From a virus (Duplodnaviria; Heunggongvirae; Uroviricota; Caudoviricetes), in IMG/VR virus record IMGVR_UViG_2695420889_000008: a stretch of DNA of 10,752 nucleotides; one strand, 5' to 3'. This document shows positions 234 through 8,423 of the stretch, in pieces. A program made the position numbers and the translations under genes. A model generated the notes under the pieces. That model saw only the letters and a list, made by a program, of their open reading frames with translations. It was not told the origin of the DNA and did no database searches. Each line of letters opens with the position of its first letter. Positions within the stretch are counted from its first letter, which is position 1.

Positions 234-986
234 TTATCTTGTCACCTTTCTCAATTGTATCTCTGCATATGCTTCTTCCTGCCAGCACTTTGTAACCAGT
301 TTATCAATGACATCTGCATATCCTTTGTACCACTGATAATCCGTCAGGTCTGGTACCAGCTTCTGGACATGAAGCCGCGCCAGTGTGGTTGGTAAACGGC
401 TAAACCGGTTTCCATTGCAACGCCCACAAACCTTATAAACAGGCGTGCCATGAAGCCGGGTTCTTTTTTCATCCAGGACAATACCTTTACCCTTGCACCC
501 TCTGCATGCTGTGCTGACTTCTCCCTTACCATGACAATGCTGACATAGTTCCTTCACCCACTCTTCCTTAATAACAGATTCCCCGCTTCTGGAGTGTTTC
601 ACCACCTCGCGCAATACATTATGAAATCCAGTACCAGCACAATGCTCACAGCGAGCCTTACTTGCCGCAGACCTGGAATAATCAGCAAAGGCAAAATTCA
701 CAAGGTAAGGAATGATCTGTAGCCGGGTTTCTTCACTCAATTTATTCAATGTCGGGTTATCCAGTGCCATCGCGTAATTGAGCAGACCTTCAATCGCAAA
801 CTGAGGATCCTGAACACCAACTTTTGCCAGGAATAAAGCAAACCCAAGCGTTGCTTTTGACTGCACCATCCCCTGCGCAGCCATCACATCCGTAATTGTT
901 AAACCACCAGAGCCTGTCGCCGGTGCGTCATCGCTCAGTTTTGGAGATTTCGGGGAGTAATATTTCGGTAAGGCTTCAAGGTTCAT
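234..986 (-). CDS. Putative late-gene antiterminator Q-like protein with four DnaJ-type CxxCxGxG zinc-finger repeats
   Basis: 250-aa ORF starting MNLEALPKYYSPK, with GGAG Shine-Dalgarno 7 nt upstream of the ATG at 984-986. Cys repeats RCEHCAGTG, CQHCHGKG, CRGCKGKG, CGRCNGN. Last gene of the rightward operon, immediately before a promoter plus terminator. Family assignment is from position and recollection, not a search. Confidence 0.5.
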   Translation of the reverse strand: MNLEALPKYYSPKSPKLSDDAPATGSGGLTITDVMAAQGMVQSKATLGFALFLAKVGVQDPQFAIEGLLNYAMALDNPTLNKLSEETRLQIIPYLVNFAFADYSRSAASKARCEHCAGTGFHNVLREVVKHSRSGESVIKEEWVKELCQHCHGKGEVSTACRGCKGKGIVLDEKRTRLHGTPVYKVCGRCNGNRFSRLPTTLARLHVQKLVPDLTDYQWYKGYADVIDKLVTKCWQEEAYAEIQLRKVTR

Positions 987-999
987 GCTCGTTCTCCAC

Positions 1000-1989
1000 T
1001 TACGCCAGTACGCCAATTGCCAGCGCACGATCGATAAAACGAAATATCAGCTCCAGCTGAGAGCCATACTTCTCTTCAAATGCCACGGTATCCGCATGCA
1101 GCTCGTCGTGATGCTTTCTGCACAAAGGCAACACAAAAAGGTCATGCGCTTTTGTACCCATTCCACACTGACCGTGGCCTATCAGGTGGTGGGGATCATC
1201 AGCGGGCTTTCCACAACATGCACACGGCTGTGTCTTAACCCAGCGCGTGTACTTTTCATTAACCCAGCGGCGACGTTTTGGGCGTAACATAAAAGACTCC
1301 GGCGACTCCGGATCCACTTTCAGCGCCAGCACCTTTTTCGCTTTATCCTGGATGATGCTGGTGGCAGGAACCGAAGGCACAAGGTCACTTTCCCGGGTGA
1401 CAGACGGCACAACAGGCTTCGGTAATCTCAGTGCCTTACGGGCTGCACTTTCCGGTAAGGCATCCGCCAGGTCATTACGAATCAGCCACCAGCACAGTTC
1501 CGGCATTGTCACAACGTGACTGTCATCAAAACCGAGATCCCGACGCACAACAGACAACACCCAGCGGGTACAGTTATCCGTTGCCATTGATTCCAGCCGT
1601 TCCGTGAACTGATCGCGCAGCTGGTTATCGCAGTGCCAGCACAGACGGATTGCGCCCGGCGTGTGTCGCATTGTGGTCATGTTCTCGCTGTGCCAGTCGG
1701 AATGAGGCCACTGGCAACCTTTTTCACGAAGTAACCAGCGTTCAAGACATTCCACTCCACCAGCACGACGAATCACTGCCTCATTGCGGAACACGGCCCG
1801 AACGGCAGGATCATCCGCCAGCGGTTGTGATGCCGCCGGAACGGCACCACTGGCGAAAGATGAATAACGTTCCGGCTCAGGCTCCAGCAGGACACGCCCC
1901 TGCATAAACAGGGGCATCAGCTCTGAACCGGGCCTGAACAATACGATCCCCATACGCGGGGCAATTTCAGGGGTCAGTAGCGCTCTCAC
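1000..1989 (-). CDS. Nin-region protein with C-terminal HNH-like Cys/His zinc-binding domain (possibly DUF968/NinG-like)
   Basis: ~329-aa ORF. C-terminus CACCGKPADDPHHLIGHG...LCRKHHDELH resembles a beta-beta-alpha-metal nuclease motif. Likely GTG start at 1987-1989 preceded by GAGG (the ORF track begins at 1995). Start is uncertain. Confidence 0.55.
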   Translation of the reverse strand: MRALLTPEIAPRMGIVLFRPGSELMPLFMQGRVLLEPEPERYSSFASGAVPAASQPLADDPAVRAVFRNEAVIRRAGGVECLERWLLREKGCQWPHSDWHSENMTTMRHTPGAIRLCWHCDNQLRDQFTERLESMATDNCTRWVLSVVRRDLGFDDSHVVTMPELCWWLIRNDLADALPESAARKALRLPKPVVPSVTRESDLVPSVPATSIIQDKAKKVLALKVDPESPESFMLRPKRRRWVNEKYTRWVKTQPCACCGKPADDPHHLIGHGQCGMGTKAHDLFVLPLCRKHHDELHADTVAFEEKYGSQLELIFRFIDRALAIGVLA

Positions 1990-1996
1990 GGTCACC

Positions 1997-2806
1997 TCAA
2001 TGAACGGTATCGAGCAGCTTTAACAGCTCAGGGAACCGGGATTCGAAGAAATGCGGCTGCGTCTCGCGCGGATTTGCGGGACTGGTGATGTTCTTGCCGA
2101 ACATGCAGCCTTTCGCCGTCAGCGACCAGAATTTTTTGATGTTGTTAATCGCAGTGCGGCTGTATCGTTCACGTTGTTCAACGATCCCCAGCTTCGCCAT
2201 CTGGTGATATGCCTGATTAGCTGTCAGGCGGATACCATACTGCTTCAGCAGTGCACTCAGTGACAGCGTGGGGCGGCTTGAGCCATCAGGCGCGTCAGCA
2301 GGAGCATCAATGGCATAGCGCGGTGCCAGATTCGGTAAGCCAACAGCCTCCTGGAGTTTCTGACAGGCACCAAGCACTGAAGAGTTAGACAGGTTTAACT
2401 CCCGGCGCATAAAGTCCAGCAGAATCACGCCAGCCTGCATCTTGTCAGCAGCCTGCCCGGATAATTTTTCCGATGCGCTGGTTACCATATCGAAAGTACG
2501 GATCACCTTCAGATGGAATGACGGGCTGATCCACATTGCATAGGCATACACCAGTTCTTTGCAGACATACGTCCCCTGGTTATTTCCGCCATTAATAACG
2601 CTAACTGGTTGATTCTTTTCCAGAGGCGGAATTCCACCCTCGGTGAAAAGTTGTTCAATCAATTCACAGGTTTGCTTATTGGAGAGCCAGTATTTCGGGC
2701 GTTTTTTTTGTTCTCCCCCGGCTGCCCTGTGCAGATCGTTCAGGCTGTAACGCCCATAAGCATCACGACGAACTTCAATACCATCAATGACCATCAGATT
2801 ATTCAT
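1997..2806 (-). CDS. KilA-N domain protein (antirepressor-like)
   Basis: 269-aa ORF. N-terminus MNNLMVIDGIEVRRDAYGRYSLNDLHRAAGG...KYWLSNKQTCELI...GTYVCKELVYAYAMWISPSFHLKVI matches the KilA-N/APSES-type pattern. GAGGAG Shine-Dalgarno 8 nt upstream. Confidence 0.7.
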   Translation of the reverse strand: MNNLMVIDGIEVRRDAYGRYSLNDLHRAAGGEQKKRPKYWLSNKQTCELIEQLFTEGGIPPLEKNQPVSVINGGNNQGTYVCKELVYAYAMWISPSFHLKVIRTFDMVTSASEKLSGQAADKMQAGVILLDFMRRELNLSNSSVLGACQKLQEAVGLPNLAPRYAIDAPADAPDGSSRPTLSLSALLKQYGIRLTANQAYHQMAKLGIVEQRERYSRTAINNIKKFWSLTAKGCMFGKNITSPANPRETQPHFFESRFPELLKLLDTVH

Positions 2807-2825
2807 ACTTCGTTTCTCCTCTTAA

Positions 2826-3215
2826 TCAGGCGGCTGCACCCGCCGGTTTCTCATACTTACTGATAGTGATCTCGACCTTCCCTTTCGGGATAACCGGTCC
2901 CCACTCCACCAGCATTCTTTTCACCTGGCTGTCGTCTTCCCACACACCCGCGTGGGTCAGGGCGTCAAACAGCGCCTTGTTATAGTTGTCCAGATCGCGG
3001 ATCCGGTTATCCGGAGGAAACAACACGATCTCCACTGAAGCAGGTGCCGACGTTGGTTTCGGCAGACGACGTAACTGCTCAACTATTGCTGCGCACGCCG
3101 CGCTCTGAAATTTTCGCCCCGCCTCGCTTATCAGGCTCTTACCAGCAAATGCCCCTTTGTTGGGGTGTCGCCAGTACGTGTTCACGCTGGGCGGGAAAGG
3201 CAGGATCAGCTTCAT
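2826..3215 (-). CDS. rusA: Holliday-junction resolvase RusA
   Basis: 129-aa ORF with RusA hallmarks: LPFPPSVNTYWRH and acidic catalytic cluster RIRDLDNYNKALFDALTHAGVWEDDSQV. ATGA overlap with the upstream gene. Confidence 0.85.
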   Translation of the reverse strand: MKLILPFPPSVNTYWRHPNKGAFAGKSLISEAGRKFQSAACAAIVEQLRRLPKPTSAPASVEIVLFPPDNRIRDLDNYNKALFDALTHAGVWEDDSQVKRMLVEWGPVIPKGKVEITISKYEKPAGAAA

Positions 3216-3538
3216 ACTTTCAGGCCTCTCTCATGTAACCAGTGAGTTGCACGCAGCCTTGCGTTTTCCTCACCGGCAAGCAGTGAGCGGATAATCCCGA
3301 CCGCCTCGCTGTCGTCGTCCTTCACCGCGGTATGAAGCGTGATCCCCCGGGCCACACCACGCTTTATCGTGATGACGCCTTTTTTCTCCAGTGCGCGAAG
3401 ATGCTCCACCGCTGCATTCACCGAACGGTATCCCAGCATGGTTGCCACCTCCTGATTGGTTGGCGGGAAGCCACGTTCTTTCTGATAAGAAATCAGCATA
3501 TCCAGCACCTGCTGCTGGCATTGAGTTAACGTCGTCAT
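3212..3538 (-). CDS. Orphan LexA-like N-terminal DNA-binding-domain protein (no S24 peptidase domain)
   Basis: 108-aa ORF. LTQCQQQVLDMLISYQKERGFPPTNQEVATMLGYRSVNAAVEHLRALEKKGVITIKRGVARGITL aligns by eye to the LexA winged-helix domain, including a near-identical recognition helix (SVNAAVEHLRAL vs LexA SPNAAEEHLKAL). No Ser/Lys peptidase domain. ATGA overlap with the Dam gene. Confidence 0.7.
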   Translation of the reverse strand: MTTLTQCQQQVLDMLISYQKERGFPPTNQEVATMLGYRSVNAAVEHLRALEKKGVITIKRGVARGITLHTAVKDDDSEAVGIIRSLLAGEENARLRATHWLHERGLKV

Positions 3539-4188
3539 GCCGCCATCTCCCTGACCAGTTTTTCCGCCTGCTGGCGAACCTGCGCCAGAAACGCCTCACC
3601 ACATGCCTCAAGTTCATCGCGCCCGATGTAGCTGATTGCCGGTCCCTTCCAGGTCTTGTCAAAAACAGCAATAGCACCAGCGAAAAAAGCTCCTGTCGGC
3701 ACCTGCTTCTCGTCCTTCGGGATAAACCAGGCAGGCAGTTCAAAACCAATACGCCCGCGAATAAAAGCAATATGGTCCGCATCTTCCGGCCACCACACTT
3801 CGCTGGTGGCAGCTTTGATCAGGAAAACATAGCGCCCGCCCTTATCACGCATGGAACTGGCATGTTTCATGATGTAACGCATGCCGGTGATGTATTGCCC
3901 CTCATGCTGACTGGCGCGGCTGTATGGGGGATTACCAAAGGCAGCACCTTTAAGCTCCGCAAGACGTTCTGACCAGTCATGCGCCAGCGCGTTATCTTCC
4001 GCCGTGTAATACGCGGCACATTTGGCGTTATCACCGTCAGTAAACAGATCCAGAACAAACGGGCCAAACAGGGTGTTAATTCCCCAGAAAATGTTGTCCG
4101 GCGTGCGCCACTGATCGCCCACTTCCTTCAGTTCATGGGCTGGTTTGTTCCGCAGTTCCACCAGCGCCTGGCAATATTTATTACTCAT
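3535..4188 (-). CDS. Phage Dam-type DNA N6-adenine methyltransferase
   Basis: Catalytic NPPY motif in FGNPPYSRA; N-terminus MSNKYCQALVELRNKPAHELKEVGDQWRTPDNIFW typical of phage Dam family. Start placed at ATG 4186-4188 (G-rich Shine-Dalgarno, 1-nt overlap with upstream stop) rather than the GTG at 4221. Confidence 0.75.
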   Translation of the reverse strand: MSNKYCQALVELRNKPAHELKEVGDQWRTPDNIFWGINTLFGPFVLDLFTDGDNAKCAAYYTAEDNALAHDWSERLAELKGAAFGNPPYSRASQHEGQYITGMRYIMKHASSMRDKGGRYVFLIKAATSEVWWPEDADHIAFIRGRIGFELPAWFIPKDEKQVPTGAFFAGAIAVFDKTWKGPAISYIGRDELEACGEAFLAQVRQQAEKLVREMAA

Positions 4189-4682
4189 TAAGCCCCCACG
4201 TAATTCCCTGACAGATACCACTCTTCACCCGATGCAGCGCGCTTGCTGCTTTTCCGTAAGCACCGCTCACGACGCGCCAGAAAATTGTTTCGTTCTGGCT
4301 GGGAGTGGCTTTCACGGAATGCCGCCATCCACACCGTTGCAGCACGACGGTATAAGCCCCTGGACTCCAGTTCTTCAGCCTGGCGGGTCAGGCACAAAAT
4401 CACCCGGGGGTCGTTAGTGCCGACATAGAAATTGCGCACAGGTCTGGTTTCACGAACTGGTTGCGGTTCCGATTCCTGCAAAACCTCAGTCTGGCGCGGG
4501 AAATGTCTGCGAGTATCCCCTTCACAACGGTGAGCCACACGCCCACTCTGACGTAACTTGCTTGCTGACTGCAGAACGCGCTGTCGTGAGTAACCTGCAA
4601 AAGCATCCGCAATGTCTCCGGAAGCACACCCCGGATGGGCTTCAATGAATTTCTGAACGTCATTTAACAGACTCATGATCAC
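4188..4682 (-). CDS. Hypothetical early protein with PerC-like C-terminal region
   Basis: 164-aa ORF; ATGA overlap with the O-like gene stop. Segment LESRGLYRRAATVWMAAF resembles the PerC-family core; recollection only. Confidence 0.5.
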   Translation of the reverse strand: MIMSLLNDVQKFIEAHPGCASGDIADAFAGYSRQRVLQSASKLRQSGRVAHRCEGDTRRHFPRQTEVLQESEPQPVRETRPVRNFYVGTNDPRVILCLTRQAEELESRGLYRRAATVWMAAFRESHSQPERNNFLARRERCLRKSSKRAASGEEWYLSGNYVGA

Positions 4683-5497
4683 CCCCTGAATCCTGCCGGG
4701 ATCTGGCTGTAGTCCACGTTGTCGTAACTGGCTTTGAAGTACGGGTCATCGCGTCTGGCTGCAGATACCGCAGGAACTTCCCAGGATTCTTCGAAATGAC
4801 GATCCGGACCAAAGAACGTGACAGCCTGTTTCACAAATTGTGTGCCGCTATTGCCCATCGCAGATACCCAGCCCGCGTAGCGTTTCACACCTTCCAGCAT
4901 GGTTTCGGGGTTTACCCCCTCGTTCAAACGGGCTTTCCAGGCTTTGAAGGCTGCTGATTTTGAATTGCCACCAGCACGTTTGGGGTATGCCAGCCATGCC
5001 TGCTCAAACTCCGGAGAGTATTCCGGTCGGTTTGAACGAACTCGCACAGACTCATCAGCAGATGCACCAACAGCTATTGGTTCATTGACTGGTTCTTTGA
5101 CTGGTTCAAAAGAGTGACTGGTTCTGGGTGAATCTCCTGCACTACCCCCTGGTGCAACTCCTGCACTACCTGGTGAATTTGCTGCACCAGATAGTGAATT
5201 ATTTGCACTACCCCCTAGTGAATCTCCTGCACCATCCAGATGAAGGAGATAGATATTACTTGAGTTACCTTTTTCACCTTTCCGGGTGACTTTTTTTACC
5301 AGCCCGGACTCACAAAGGGCCGCAATATGATTCATCACAGAACGTTTGCTAATCTCGCACTGGTCAGCAATATGCTGGTAGCTGGGCCAGCACTCACCCT
5401 GATCGCTGGCATTATCAGCCAGCTTGATCAGAACCAGTTTTCGCAATGGATTACCCACTCGAATTTTCATCGCTTTAACCATCAGCTCCATACTCAT
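4679..5497 (-). CDS. Replication initiator / replisome organiser (lambda O-like) with internal iterons
   Basis: 272-aa ORF. N-terminus KIRVGNPLRKLVLIKLADNASDQGECWPSYQHIADQCEISKRSVMNHIAALCESGLVKK is a winged-helix replisome-organiser type. Central low-complexity linker (GGSANNSLSGAANSPGSAGVAPGGSAGDSP) is encoded by direct DNA repeats. ATGA overlap with the upstream gene. Confidence 0.7.
   Translation of the reverse strand: MSMELMVKAMKIRVGNPLRKLVLIKLADNASDQGECWPSYQHIADQCEISKRSVMNHIAALCESGLVKKVTRKGEKGNSSNIYLLHLDGAGDSLGGSANNSLSGAANSPGSAGVAPGGSAGDSPRTSHSFEPVKEPVNEPIAVGASADESVRVRSNRPEYSPEFEQAWLAYPKRAGGNSKSAAFKAWKARLNEGVNPETMLEGVKRYAGWVSAMGNSGTQFVKQAVTFFGPDRHFEESWEVPAVSAARRDDPYFKASYDNVDYSQIPAGFRG
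5086..5237. repeat. Direct-repeat (iteron-like) array inside the O-like gene; candidate replication origin
   Basis: Five ~21-24-bp tandem units with core GTGAAT(C/T)T(C/G)CTGCAC at 5128-5237, and three copies of TGACTGGTTC at 5086-5124, all read on the plus strand. Confidence 0.6.
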
Positions 5498-5718
5498 GCT
5501 GCACCTCCGAGATGCTTCATGTTTTTTCCGGAGCGAAAGGCTATGAGCGGCATACTGACGCGGTAATTACGACCCAGCGGTTCACAAATCACCTTCTGAC
5601 ATTCACGGTCAACCAGGCTAACACGTAGAACATGCCCTGCAGGCGTGGTGTACCACTGACCCGGGCGAGGACAACGGAAAGTTTGATTGGTAAACCGTTT
5701 GAAAATATTTCGGATCAT
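5494..5718 (-). CDS. Hypothetical small protein (74 aa)
   Basis: ORF bracketed by ATGA overlaps on both sides (5715-5718 and 5494-5497), which argues for translation; no recognisable motif. Confidence 0.45.
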   Translation of the reverse strand: MIRNIFKRFTNQTFRCPRPGQWYTTPAGHVLRVSLVDRECQKVICEPLGRNYRVSMPLIAFRSGKNMKHLGGAA

Positions 5719-6866
5719 TTGCGCCCCCTTACCTCTGAAGAGTTCAGCGACGAATGAATAAGACGGGCAAGAAATGCCGCATCGTTAATTCGGTCATACA
5801 GACTTACAGCCAGCGGTGATTCAGCTTTTTCCAGCATGGGATAAAGCTGCTGCAACCAGACCTGATGAATTGATGAAATGTAGGAATAGAGAACGCTGGC
5901 GTTATGTGCAACGTCACTCGGTACAGCGAGCTTTGAAAGCTGTTTCTCCATCTGGTTAAAGGCATTGATGTATGCCTCTTTGAACTGGGCAGCACGTTTA
6001 CCCGTGAAACCCATAGCAAGAAACGCAAAGCCGTCGCGGGTTATTTGATAGCAAGGTAGTTTGCGGCCTGTGCAATCGGTGTAATCACTCACCGAAAAAT
6101 TGCGGGCAGTGAATGATGCGGAGCATTCAAGCGTGCGGATCTTTTTCAGAACATCGTCATGACGTTTGGAGAAGAAGTTGGCAACAGCCAGGGATGAAGT
6201 AACAGCCTGACCATCAACGATGGCAATTTCGGGTTGAGTGAGGGTTGGGATCGTAGCCATGATGGCAGCCTCTTTGGTGATTTTTAATAACTCACCACCA
6301 AGGCTTTCCACGACCTTATTGGTGGTGAGACGTACAGGGGTGGAAATACCGGTCACCAAAGAACCCGGCCCAACCGAAGTTGGCCCTGCACGCCCCACCA
6401 TAATTTGGGCGTAATGCTGCTCATGACACAAAAAAACCGCAAGAGCGCGGTTGTGCGCTTTGGTGAATTCCGGGTTTCCACGCCCGGCACCCGCTTTATA
6501 AGGTGCCTGAACAGTGTAACGTCCCGGAATGGCAGAATCAATGTGCTGGTGGTCCTTCACACTCAACAAAATCACGCCTGAATTTCCACAAAGGACTAAA
6601 GCACTCATGCGGGTAGTCTTTGCGAAGATAGATAACGCGCTGTGTTTCTGGCTCCCAACGAATAACATGGACATAAAGCCCTCTTCCGTCACGAAACCAG
6701 CGGTTAAGTTCCTGCACAACTCGCCCCCCACAGTCAGGTAAAGTTCTCTGTGGTTACTTACAGCCAGGTGATTTGGTAATCTGCATTCATGCCGTAACAA
6801 CAGGTGTTCAGCGACACTGACCACCAGCTGTTGCGACAAACGGTTATTTGCCGTTAAACTGTTCAT
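5715..6866 (-). CDS. Rha-family phage regulatory protein, C-terminal 181 aa, with ~200-aa in-frame N-terminal extension of unknown function
   Basis: Rha signature VTSSLAVANFFSKRHDDVLKKIRTL...ITRDGFAFLAMGFTGKRAAQFKEAYINAFNQME lies in the C-terminal half. The open frame runs 383 codons from an ATG (6864-6866) that overlaps the CII-like stop (ATGA). A second start at 6258-6260 has an AGAGG Shine-Dalgarno and would give a stand-alone Rha protein (5715-6260). Which start is used is unresolved. Confidence 0.55.
   Translation of the reverse strand: MNSLTANNRLSQQLVVSVAEHLLLRHECRLPNHLAVSNHRELYLTVGGELCRNLTAGFVTEEGFMSMLFVGSQKHSALSIFAKTTRMSALVLCGNSGVILLSVKDHQHIDSAIPGRYTVQAPYKAGAGRGNPEFTKAHNRALAVFLCHEQHYAQIMVGRAGPTSVGPGSLVTGISTPVRLTTNKVVESLGGELLKITKEAAIMATIPTLTQPEIAIVDGQAVTSSLAVANFFSKRHDDVLKKIRTLECSASFTARNFSVSDYTDCTGRKLPCYQITRDGFAFLAMGFTGKRAAQFKEAYINAFNQMEKQLSKLAVPSDVAHNASVLYSYISSIHQVWLQQLYPMLEKAESPLAVSLYDRINDAAFLARLIHSSLNSSEVRGRK
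6430..6452 (-). terminator. Intragenic terminator-like hairpin inside the N-terminal extension of the Rha ORF
   Basis: Minus strand: ACCGC-gctctt-GCGGT followed by T6-7. Short stem, so weak. Confidence 0.3.
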
Positions 6867-7426
6867 GCGTTAGTTTCTCCACAGACACAAAACGCCACGA
6901 CGCCCGGAGCTGCACACTCGCGGGCGTCACTCTTTTCTGGAGCGCAAAAGATTTTGTAGACCAGTGCTGCATGCTCCTGGAGCTTCGAAATTGACAGATA
7001 CAACTCATCATTAATTGCTGTCTGCTCGTGTGGCTCCACGACCCCATCTTCGATTGCCGAACGAATCTGCTTTGAGTAATTCCCGATCTGTTCGATGACT
7101 TCCAGCAGGCGCTGGTTTATATCGGCGTTCTCTACTTCCTCAATTTCAGGAAGCGATACGAACACCCCACCAGCAGACTGTGCGACAGCATCCGCAATGT
7201 AGTGAGTGCCAGCCGCGCGCTGTAAAACCATTGCCCATCCCAGCGGGAAAATCTGATCGCCATCGGCACGAAGGCGGTTAAATAATGCGTTCTCTGTTAC
7301 ATCCAGCCAGTCAGCTGCTTCAGCGTAACCACCCGGCAACGCTGCGATAGTTTTTCTGACAGCTTTCACGTACCACTCAGGCTGTTTTTCTACTTTCCAG
7401 TGATACTTACCCACGGTTAGCCTCAT
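6863..7426 (-). CDS. CII-like early regulatory protein (tentative)
   Basis: 187-aa ORF immediately downstream of the Cro-like gene, stop overlapping the next start. Family guess is from position and recollection only; weak Shine-Dalgarno. Confidence 0.4.
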   Translation of the reverse strand: MRLTVGKYHWKVEKQPEWYVKAVRKTIAALPGGYAEAADWLDVTENALFNRLRADGDQIFPLGWAMVLQRAAGTHYIADAVAQSAGGVFVSLPEIEEVENADINQRLLEVIEQIGNYSKQIRSAIEDGVVEPHEQTAINDELYLSISKLQEHAALVYKIFCAPEKSDARECAAPGVVAFCVCGETNA

Positions 7427-7457
7427 CGTTCTGTGGTTAAAAATTGAAGGTGTTCTG

Positions 7458-7658
7458 TTAATCTTTCGGATAGATATCCGGTCTTAAGTCAGATTTCGTA
7501 ATTGCACCTGACGTGCATTGCTCAAGTTTTTTAGCCAGCACAAAACTGGCTTTTTTATAACCATTGAAAACCAGCCGTAAGTAGCCTGGTGTTGAGCCAA
7601 CTTTTCCGGCCAACTCGCCCTGCTGTTCTTTGGTTAAAGAGTCCCAATACGCTTTCAT
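7458..7658 (-). CDS. Cro-like HTH repressor
   Basis: 66-aa ORF starting MKAYWDSLTKEQQGELAGKVG, with GGAGG Shine-Dalgarno 10 nt upstream. Divergent from the CI-like gene across an operator-rich spacer. The ORF-track start at 7682 has no Shine-Dalgarno and was rejected. Confidence 0.6.
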   Translation of the reverse strand: MKAYWDSLTKEQQGELAGKVGSTPGYLRLVFNGYKKASFVLAKKLEQCTSGAITKSDLRPDIYPKD

Positions 7659-7664
7659 ACAATA

Positions 7665-7731
7665 TGTACCTCCAATATACATATTACATGATTAATATGA
7701 ACCTTCAAGATACTTGTACCTTATCGGTACA
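7665..7731. promoter_or_regulatory. OR-like operator region between the divergent Cro-like and CI-like genes
   Basis: Two 17-bp sites: TGTACC-tccaa-TATACA (7665-7681) and TGTACC-ttatc-GGTACA (7715-7731). Candidate leaderless PRM: TTGTAC (7714-7719), 17-bp spacer, TTTAAT (7737-7742), start near the cI ATG at 7749. Candidate PR on the minus strand: TTGAAG (7703-7708) and TAATAT (7681-7686). Confidence 0.5.
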
Positions 7732-7748
7732 AAGGTTTTAATTTCTTT

Positions 7749-8423
7749 ATGAAAACAGTCCATGACATCCGGCGGTCTAACGCCAGAAAACTGAGAGATG
7801 GTGTTGGCGGGAATTCTTCCTTTGCCACCATGATTGATCGCGAGCCAACCCAGACCAGCAGGTTTATGGGAGATGGTGCTACTAAAAATATCGGTGACAG
7901 CATGGCACGGCACATCGAAAAATGTTTCGACCTGCCTGTCGGATGGCTTGATCAAGAACACCAGACCACGAACATCACAAAAAAACCTGATGTTTCAATC
8001 ACTAACAAACAAATAACGTTAGTCCCTGTCATATCATGGGTACAGGCCGGAGCATGGAAAGAAGTTGGCTATTCTGAGGTTGATTTGAGCACAGCAGAAA
8101 CTTATCCCTGCCCTGTACCCTGTGGCGAAATGACTTATATCTTGCGGGTGATTGGTGATTCAATGATTGATGAGTACCGCCCGGGAGACATGATTTTTGT
8201 TGATCCCGAAGTCCCTGCCTGCCACGGTGACGACGTTATTGCATTGATGCACGATACAGGCGAAACCACCTTCAAGCGATTGATAGAAGATGGAACACAG
8301 CGTTATCTCAAAGCATTAAACCCAAACTGGCCTGAGCCTTACATTAAGATTAACGGTAATTGCTCTATAATTGGTACAGTAATTTTCTCAGGAAAACCAA
8401 GAAGATACAAAATAAAGGCCTAA
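7749..8423 (+). CDS. CI/DicA-type prophage repressor with LexA-like S24 autopeptidase domain
   Basis: 224-aa ORF. C-terminal domain has the S24 motifs GDSM (catalytic Ser), GDMIFVD and TFKRL (catalytic Lys). N-terminal domain ends in the VGWLD motif typical of C2/CI-type DNA-binding domains. Confidence 0.85.
   Translation: MKTVHDIRRSNARKLRDGVGGNSSFATMIDREPTQTSRFMGDGATKNIGDSMARHIEKCFDLPVGWLDQEHQTTNITKKPDVSITNKQITLVPVISWVQAGAWKEVGYSEVDLSTAETYPCPVPCGEMTYILRVIGDSMIDEYRPGDMIFVDPEVPACHGDDVIALMHDTGETTFKRLIEDGTQRYLKALNPNWPEPYIKINGNCSIIGTVIFSGKPRRYKIKA

Follow-up and report, generated by a model that had tools for sequence, protein, structure and literature searches.

LexA-type regulators of phages and the gene LexL

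In the Bacillus thuringiensis tectivirus GIL01, the late promoter P3 is activated by gp6, a LexA homologue in truncated form (Fornelos et al. 2018, PMC6182141). The specificity of gp6 is changed relative to LexA, and it binds GaCACAnnTGTGaC in a K38-dependent manner (PMC6182141). The isolated LexA DNA-binding domain (DBD) represses sulA only when it is fused to a self-associating partner, a property on which LexA two-hybrid assays are built (PMC7595419). The SOS response governs prophage induction, Shiga-toxin release, mutagenesis and antibiotic tolerance in Escherichia coli, and its control is assumed to rest on one cleavable repressor. Here we analyzed a LexA-like gene, named LexL, that is located at positions 3212..3538 on the minus strand of a 10,752-nucleotide stretch of Caudoviricetes DNA (IMG/VR record IMGVR_UViG_2695420889_000008; the whole stretch is called the window below). 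Our favoured reading, to which we give a probability of about 45%, is that LexL is a LexA-derived regulator of the SOS-box type that is dimerised by a helical hairpin and is not switched off by DNA damage.

Like gp6, LexL is a phage-encoded LexA DBD without the cleavable C-terminal domain, and both are early products of phages tied to the SOS response. The two proteins differ in that gp6 has 66 amino acids, no C-terminal hairpin and about 44% identity to Bacillus LexA, whereas LexL has about 50% to E. coli LexA; moreover, gp6 is an activator with a diverged palindrome, while LexL keeps the DNA-reading residues of LexA. BLASTP gave no alignment between gp6 and LexL at E <= 100 and gp6 lacks the hairpin, so the two are independent captures of host lexA heads. 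Full-text literature searches returned no experimental study of the LexL family, and only gp6 emerged as an analogue. The preliminary description of this DNA had stated that a characterised phage protein of this type was not known, and gp6 (PMC6182141) corrects that statement.

The engineered LexA(1-87)-zipper and two-hybrid repressors also resemble LexL, as they join the LexA DBD to a small heterologous element, and the engineered form is inherently RecA-insensitive. These fusions are artificial and their partner dimerises, whereas LexL is natural and conserved and its dimerisation through the hairpin is a proposal. SfV Orf42, mEp460 gp46, PHROG 362 and the corresponding PGAP entry represent the same gene as LexL, and no difference from it was found.

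Domain identity of LexL

The LexL gene encodes 108 amino acids and starts with an ATG, and a GGAG Shine-Dalgarno sequence was read 8 nucleotides upstream of it in the window. The Pfam profile PF01726 (LexA_DNA_bind) matched LexL over its entire length (positions 1-65 of 65) with an E-value of 2.9e-19 and 69 bits against a cut-off of 23.7, and residues 2-69 align without gaps to the DBD of E. coli LexA in PDB 1lea (E 6.9e-16, about 50% identity). The PHROG 362 profile covers the whole protein, with residues 1-108 placed on positions 1-106 of 106 (E 1.1e-59). When the TIGR00498 equivalog profile of lexA was applied, LexL reached 70.8 bits against the cut-off of 110.95, and the match was confined to profile positions 1-91 of 203. 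An S24 peptidase domain with its Ser/Lys dyad is absent, as Pfam gave no match for it and the chain stops at residue 108. LexL thus falls short of the LexA repressor proper in its TIGR00498 score, in the S24 domain with the dyad and in the Ala-Gly cleavage site, and it belongs to PF01726 and PHROG 362 rather than to LexA in the family sense. Since the S24 domain is missing, a self-cleavage response of LexL to RecA is impossible. PADLOC gave no defence-system assignment for LexL, only a weak CARF-HTH match (E 3.6e-4).

Predicted structure of LexL

We modelled LexL with AlphaFold2 from a 20-sequence alignment and obtained a mean predicted local distance difference test score (pLDDT) of 84. The model predicts a LexA-type winged helix-turn-helix in residues 1-68 (3335..3538, minus strand; pLDDT about 90), with helices at residues 6-22, 28-35 and 40-52, the last of which is the recognition helix, and strands at 56-58 and 66-68. 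The best Foldseek match of the model was the LexA–DNA complex 3jso, with a root-mean-square deviation of 1.0 Å over 68 residues and 50% identity. The preliminary description had predicted a 108-amino-acid LexA DBD protein without the cleavable peptidase and dimerisation domain and had proposed a comparison with LexA structures; the Pfam, TIGR00498, 1lea and 3jso results agree with it on each of these points and do not place LexL in another winged-helix family. In comparison with E. coli LexA (1lea, 1jhh and 3jso), LexL shares the DBD fold, S39, N41, A42, E45 and the wing residues RGI, whereas the S24 domain, Ser119/Lys156 and E44 are found in LexA only and the hairpin in LexL only.

Behind the DNA-binding head, the model predicts a flexible linker of residues 69-74 (3317..3334, minus strand; pLDDT below 50 at residues 71-74), which varies in length and sequence across the family, followed by a two-helix hairpin of residues 75-103 (3230..3316, minus strand; pLDDT about 90). 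The hairpin is predicted to consist of helices 75-88 and 93-103 joined by the turn AGEEN. The family alignment showed that its length and pattern are kept down to 38-45% identity, that A97 and L101 are invariant, and that positions 80, 83, 86, 87 and 100 are hydrophobic. According to the model, a conserved helical hairpin of about 30 residues stands where LexA has its C-terminal domain. By analogy with the LexA-DBD fusions, we propose that the hairpin is a dimerisation element replacing the S24 domain, and it may be a new minimal element of this kind.

The HMMER alignment of LexL to LexA extended into the hairpin, with residues 82-90 (IIRSLLAGE) placed against the LexA cleavage region LVGRVAAGE. 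Among 109 family representatives, the dipeptide AG is present at positions 88-89 in 53, mainly close relatives, and the others have ER, TR, DD, AE, AC or AD. Because AG is not conserved in the family and A88-G89 sits at a predicted helix C-cap, we rejected it as a conserved cleavage site or as a decoy cleavable in trans.

Many proteins of the representative library (P0132, P0133, P0149, P0152, P0153 and others) carry two tandem LexA DNA-binding domains in a single chain and no peptidase domain, which may be a covalent-dimer answer to the problem that the hairpin may solve.

DNA-reading residues of LexL

The DNA contacts of LexA helix III are made by S39, N41, A42, E44 and E45 (PMC3091678). The equivalent residues of LexL are S39, N41, A42, V44 and E45, so that four of the five contacts are kept, and the invariant wing motif R64-G65-I66 is kept as well. 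To describe the family, we surveyed 109 hairpin-bearing cluster representatives and found that S39 is invariant, N41 is nearly invariant and A42 is the majority residue, while position 45 mostly holds E or D, each of which is also seen in genuine LexAs of the same data set. The retention of a LexA-like recognition helix, pointed out in the preliminary description, is thus borne out by four residues identical to E. coli LexA. Based on these shared residues, the occupancy of SOS boxes by LexL is a reasonable hypothesis, and the LexL of the window is a good candidate reader of CTGT half-sites.

SOS boxes near LexL and its relatives

We scanned for SOS boxes using a 20-bp matrix trained on about 20 E. 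coli operators, which themselves score 13-27 bits. Strong boxes of 20.9-27 bits were found directly upstream of LexL-family operons in four lineages other than that of the window. In Klebsiella prophages (L012), a 27-bit box is followed by dinI, a hypothetical gene, LexL, a hypothetical gene and DUF968; in Enterobacter (L100), a 20.9-bit box is followed by a hypothetical gene, LexL, a hypothetical gene, RusA, DUF968 and Q; in a metagenomic phage (L187), a 25.3-bit box precedes recA, a hypothetical gene, LexL, a hypothetical gene and DUF968; and in the Edwardsiella phage EPP-1 (L006), a 24.6-bit box precedes Rha, a 71-amino-acid LexL without the hairpin, and DUF968. One clade of the family is N-terminally extended (130-135 amino acids), and in every case its LexL belongs to an operon with an SOS box at its head (L012 6385-7393; L187 340-2231; L100 5560-6408), after a conserved small open reading frame (ORF); a phage dinI (Klebsiella) or a phage recA (the metagenomic contig) is variably present. 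The LexL family thus lies in SOS-regulated surroundings, sometimes beside the RecA-filament modulators dinI and recA, which fits a feedback element acting on SOS boxes.

Phages that carry the same allele as the window have strong SOS boxes at dinI promoters and at the 5' end of a late N6/N4 methylase gene. The co-occurrence of this late-methylase box with LexL is near-complete in the phage records; it is not independent evidence, because only about 4 kb separate the two within the same lineages, and because phiNP has the box without LexL.

The late-methylase box is the identical sequence TACTGTAAAAATAAACAGTG (22.4 bits), located at codons 3-9 of the late N6/N4 DNA methyltransferase gene (SfV orf48, mEp460 gp53). 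It was found at L009 41021-41040, L008 16752-16771, L001 788-807, L015 11310-11329 and L104 6041-6060, in phages of E. coli, Salmonella and Citrobacter, and in a Stx2c phage it is located about 1.2 kb past the left edge of the window. In phiNP, TACTGTAAAAATAAACAGTG is unchanged even though its flanks are 13% diverged. This position suggests that the late N6/N4 methylase is under LexA control, or that LexA acts there as a roadblock.

Other boxes were observed in related phages. In SfIV (L002 2824-3284), the rusA pseudogene is followed by the box TACTGTATTTATGAACAGTA (23.7 bits), about 100 nucleotides upstream of a KilA-N-type gene, which therefore appears to be LexA-controlled there; in the window, the KilA-N gene starts 19 nucleotides after RusA. 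Near-perfect boxes of 23.5-26.8 bits lie within the coding sequence of the mEp460 gp38-type cI-like S24 repressor gene (L009 31970-31989; L102 836-855; L188 2034-2053), and the same sequences are present in 23 of 80 IMG/VR loci. The S24 repressor of the window has no internal SOS box.

In the window, the only exact match to CTGT-N8-ACAG is located at 6748-6763 (CTGTGGTTACTTACAG), with the DUF4222 ORF starting about 30 nucleotides downstream. Its score is only 7.8 bits, and chance alone would give about 0.16 exact matches. We regard it as probably fortuitous and did not use it as evidence.

Proposed role of LexL

In the favoured reading, LexL would be made as a delayed-early protein from a pR-type promoter after the cleavable cI-like repressor has been inactivated. 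Its hairpin would dimerise it, as the heterologous zipper does in LexA-DBD fusion repressors, and the dimer would bind CTGT-type half-sites, that is, SOS-box-like operators. Because LexL would appear only after repressor inactivation, when the host LexA has already been cleaved, it would re-impose LexA-type repression in a form that is insensitive to RecA. It might act on host SOS genes and on phage SOS-box promoters (dinI and the late N6/N4 methylase), and further candidates are LexA-controlled antirepressor-type genes of its own or of co-resident prophages. The free N-terminal fragment of LexA retains weak operator binding and is cleared via ClpXP after cleavage, which fits the idea that a DBD that is not degraded can repress. 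The idea of a non-cleavable LexA mimic, put forward in the preliminary description, is reasonable and is somewhat strengthened by this analysis. With such a look-alike in about two-fifths of sequenced E. coli strains, SOS genes could be re-repressed during induction, or phage timing could be rewired.

A more specific form of the favoured reading, which we consider possible but doubtful, is that LexL is a natural RecA-proof substitute for LexA, whose hairpin dimer acts on canonical SOS boxes and resets or caps the SOS regulon in the induced cell. If true, it would shut down the SOS functions of the host, toxins and colicins under SOS control, and LexA-controlled antirepressors encoded by rival prophages, and it would auto-limit the SOS-box operons (dinI, recA and Rha) that contain its relatives. 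Given the presence of LexL in about 41% of complete E. coli genomes and in the Stx2c phages, this would amount to a widespread unrecognised layer of SOS control, affecting the hierarchy of prophage induction and Shiga-toxin output.

Several results weigh against the favoured reading. The window has no SOS-box site of at least 10 bits. The LexA contact E44 is retained in none of the hairpin-family representatives, and some subfamilies diverge further, with L44/L45 in Klebsiella and T42/G45 in Citrobacter; with E44 lost and positions 42 and 45 changed, the family may have shifted its specificity in the way that GIL01 gp6 did. The association with SOS boxes comes from about two independent lineages only, the N-extended clade and EPP-1, and it is explained equally well if the LexL family is merely SOS-induced. 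In phiNP, the late-methylase SOS box is kept without LexL. As for the hairpin, sequence and profile searches with it alone against PDB and Pfam gave nothing significant.

Some of the same results point to another explanation, namely that the LexA-derived domain of LexL has drifted to a phage site in place of the host SOS box, and that LexL activates or represses a phage promoter such as a late or nin-region one. We consider this explanation less likely than the favoured reading, and the remaining ones much less likely still. It has a precedent in gp6, which binds GaCACAnnTGTGaC and activates P3 (PMC6182141), and it would account for the family-wide loss of E44, the variation of positions 42, 45 and 46 between subfamilies, the constant location of LexL just upstream of DUF968 and Q, and the lack of a good SOS box in the window. 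On the other hand, LexL agrees with E. coli LexA in S39, N41, A42, E45 and the wing RGI and is 50% identical to it overall, whereas gp6 is too diverged for a BLASTP alignment with LexL. In addition, leaving aside the cI/Cro operators, no conserved non-SOS palindrome was found near LexL or elsewhere in the window, and relatives of LexL lie behind canonical SOS boxes. A gp6-like candidate site over the -35 element of a late promoter was not found in the window, most of the late promoter region being located outside it. If LexL does bind a private phage operator, it would be the second independent case, after gp6, of a LexA head recycled as a phage regulator.

Neighbouring methyltransferase and resolvase genes

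LexL lies between the genes for a phage N6-adenine methyltransferase, Dam (217 amino acids; 3535..4188, minus strand), and a RusA Holliday-junction resolvase (129 amino acids; 2826..3215, minus strand). Dam was identified by PF05869 (E 7.8e-46), by TIGR01712 with 254.6 bits against a cut-off of 97.05, and by PADLOC as MTase_II (E 2.5e-158), and its translation contains the NPPY motif (FGNPPYS). RusA matched PF05866 over positions 1-123 of 124 (E 5.4e-15, 56.5 bits against 22.8). The range 3212-4188 given in the preliminary description comprises LexL and Dam, with RusA just outside it. The ATGA coupling of LexL to both neighbours that it had noted was confirmed, since both overlaps can be read from the sequence: the Dam stop and the LexL start overlap at 3535..3538 and the LexL stop and the RusA start at 3212..3215 (both on the minus strand, tcat in the window).

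The same Dam 3535-4188 is labelled "phosphoadenosine phosphosulfate reductase" both by RefSeq (NC_019716, NC_003444 and NC_009514) and by PHROG, where the entry phrog_33262 is a fusion profile of 495 positions. As Pfam, TIGR01712 and PADLOC agree on an N6-adenine methyltransferase, the reductase label has likely been mis-transferred.

It had further been proposed that Dam, the LexA-like protein and RusA form a functional module. Accordingly, LexL would belong to one co-expressed DNA-modification and repair unit and would regulate, or cooperate with, the methylase and the resolvase. Our comparison of the neighbours covered about 14 distinct contexts as well as 80 near-identical copies from IMG/VR. 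The Dam–LexL junction is the same, with 0 nucleotides between the genes, in 51 of the 52 copies that bear Dam, and the LexL–RusA junction is the same in 77 of 80. RusA is located directly downstream of LexL in all 80 close copies and in most of the distant contexts. These junctions and the constancy of RusA speak for a unit, and so does, as a looser link, the recurrence of methylases of different families just upstream of LexL.

Dam itself does not follow this pattern. Of the 80 near-identical copies, 52 have it, 25 lack it and 3 are uninformative, and in the 25 Dam-less copies (of 77) the stop of a PerC-like gene abuts the LexL ATG. In the window, this PerC-like (YfdN) ORF of 164 amino acids (4188..4682, minus strand; PF06069, E 7e-9) lies upstream of Dam, and the Dam ATG (4186-4188) shares one base with its TAA; where Dam is absent, it is the upstream neighbour of LexL. 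Dam is also missing beside LexL in SfIV, 2H10, mEp390 and the Citrobacter, Klebsiella, Enterobacter and Edwardsiella contexts. Conversely, phiNP has Dam, a C5 methylase, DUF968 and Q but neither LexL nor RusA, and in SfIV, LexL is kept alongside a rusA pseudogene with an internal stop. Start/stop overlaps connect almost every gene in these nin regions, and therefore the ATGA coupling is not specific and gives no evidence of a dedicated module. Dam is a facultative neighbour of LexL and RusA a near-constant one, and the proposed module is not supported by this comparison; we regard it as improbable.

The slot upstream of LexL differs between lineages, holding a PF05869 Dam, a Dam together with a C5 methylase, or a PF02086 D12-class methylase. 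A long Dam with a C5 cytosine methylase was found in L015 and L102, and a D12-class adenine methylase in L185 and L186 (slot coordinates: L015 3599-7004; L102 3171-6004; L185 5167-5991; L104 1111-3712). We read it as an insertion slot for morons and methylases, and a functional connection with LexL is possible.

LexL and host LexA

LexL could also act on LexA itself, as an anti-LexA factor that occupies SOS boxes without repressing or that sequesters LexA, and thereby boosts the SOS response and prophage induction. LexL and LexA have their DNA-reading residues in common, and small phage modulators of LexA exist, such as GIL01 gp7 (PMC6182141). However, LexL lacks the C-terminal dimerisation domain of LexA and has no obvious route to a heterodimer, it is expressed after repressor cleavage, when LexA is already depleted, and a bound DBD that overlaps a promoter is expected to repress. 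We thus find this explanation very improbable. The suggestion that LexL poisons LexA dimers meets the same difficulty, as LexA dimerises through the C-terminal domain, which in LexL is replaced by an unrelated helical hairpin.

Annotation, distribution and selection of the LexL family

The same gene, with 97-100% protein identity, is found in SfV (orf42), mEp460 (gp46), SfII, SfIV, cdtI, 2H10 and Stx2c phages, and all 15 Stx2c phages in the collection carry it. Searching the complete E. coli genomes at a nucleotide identity of at least 90%, we detected LexL in 2232 of 5426, with up to four copies per genome. Homologues with 40-65% identity occur in Salmonella, Citrobacter, Cronobacter, Klebsiella, Enterobacter, Atlantibacter and Hafnia. 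Existing labels read "unknown" (SfV orf42), "transcriptional repressor" (PHROG 362) and "LexA family transcriptional regulator" (PGAP). Judging from these records, the family is already annotated and extremely common, and its annotations are by homology only; newly described here, from sequence comparison and modelling, are the hairpin tail, the non-conserved Ala-Gly, the loss of E44 and the SOS boxes ahead of relatives.

The ratio of nonsynonymous to synonymous substitution rates (dN/dS) of LexL was 0.10-0.22 when compared with SfV, SfIV, 2H10 and a Salmonella homologue, which indicates that the gene is real and under purifying selection. The possibility that LexL is a decaying, functionless fragment of a captured lexA, to which the HMMER alignment with LexA up to residue 90, including the cleavage-site-like Ala-Gly-Glu, might point, is effectively refuted by this dN/dS of 0.1-0.2, by a family length held at 104-112 amino acids, by the conservation of the hairpin across genera at 40-65% identity and by thousands of copies.

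Two further scans were made for family members. The scan of viral contigs returned only copies with 98-100% identity, and was used for the presence or absence of Dam rather than for diversity. The scan of genome contigs with a pattern from the family alignment matched only host lexA genes (Halomonas and others) and no members of the LexL family. L058 proved to be a 203-amino-acid host LexA. Beside a LexL-carrying Klebsiella prophage, we observed a pair of genes for an AAA_15/AAA_21 ATPase and a DUF4435 protein (L012 574-2542), which has a PARIS-like defence architecture.

Genomic setting and expression

The window represents the immunity and early-right part of a lambdoid prophage of the Stx2c/SfV type, and 93% of its length matches Stx2c-converting phages at 97% identity. 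On the minus strand, the order of genes is Cro/YdaS-like, CII (CP76), DUF4222, isrK and C4 RNAs, Rha, a 74-amino-acid ORF, a replication protein (HTH_36), PerC-like, Dam, LexL, RusA, KilA-N, DUF968/HNH and Q. The DUF968/HNH protein of 331 amino acids (1000..1995, minus strand; PF06147, E 4e-80) is located downstream of LexL in nearly all contexts, and the antiterminator Q (234..1028, minus strand; PF03589, E 1.2e-52) ends the early-right/nin operon that holds LexL.

The cI-like repressor gene is divergent (7749-8423), and its S24 domain is present. A promoter-like site corresponding to pR, TTCATA-16-TATATT (7674..7701, minus strand), adjoins the operator palindromes, with the inverted repeats I2 and I3 located at 7655-7713. 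In a scan of positions 2700-7800, this pR analogue was the only sigma-70-like site upstream of LexL on the minus strand. Since no promoter-like site lies between it and LexL, we read LexL as a delayed-early gene of the nin region.

Two RNAs were identified with Rfam, a C4 antisense RNA (6318-6405, minus strand; 83.6 bits) and an isrK Hfq-binding RNA (6430-6506, minus strand; 67 bits). They lie in tandem between the DUF4222 ORF (6538-6717) and the Rha-family ORF (5715-6260). A 383-amino-acid ORF at 5715-6866 runs through both RNAs and was set aside as an artefact. The C4 and isrK pair is an antirepressor control module of the P1/P7 c4-ant or Gifsy-1 IsrK type.

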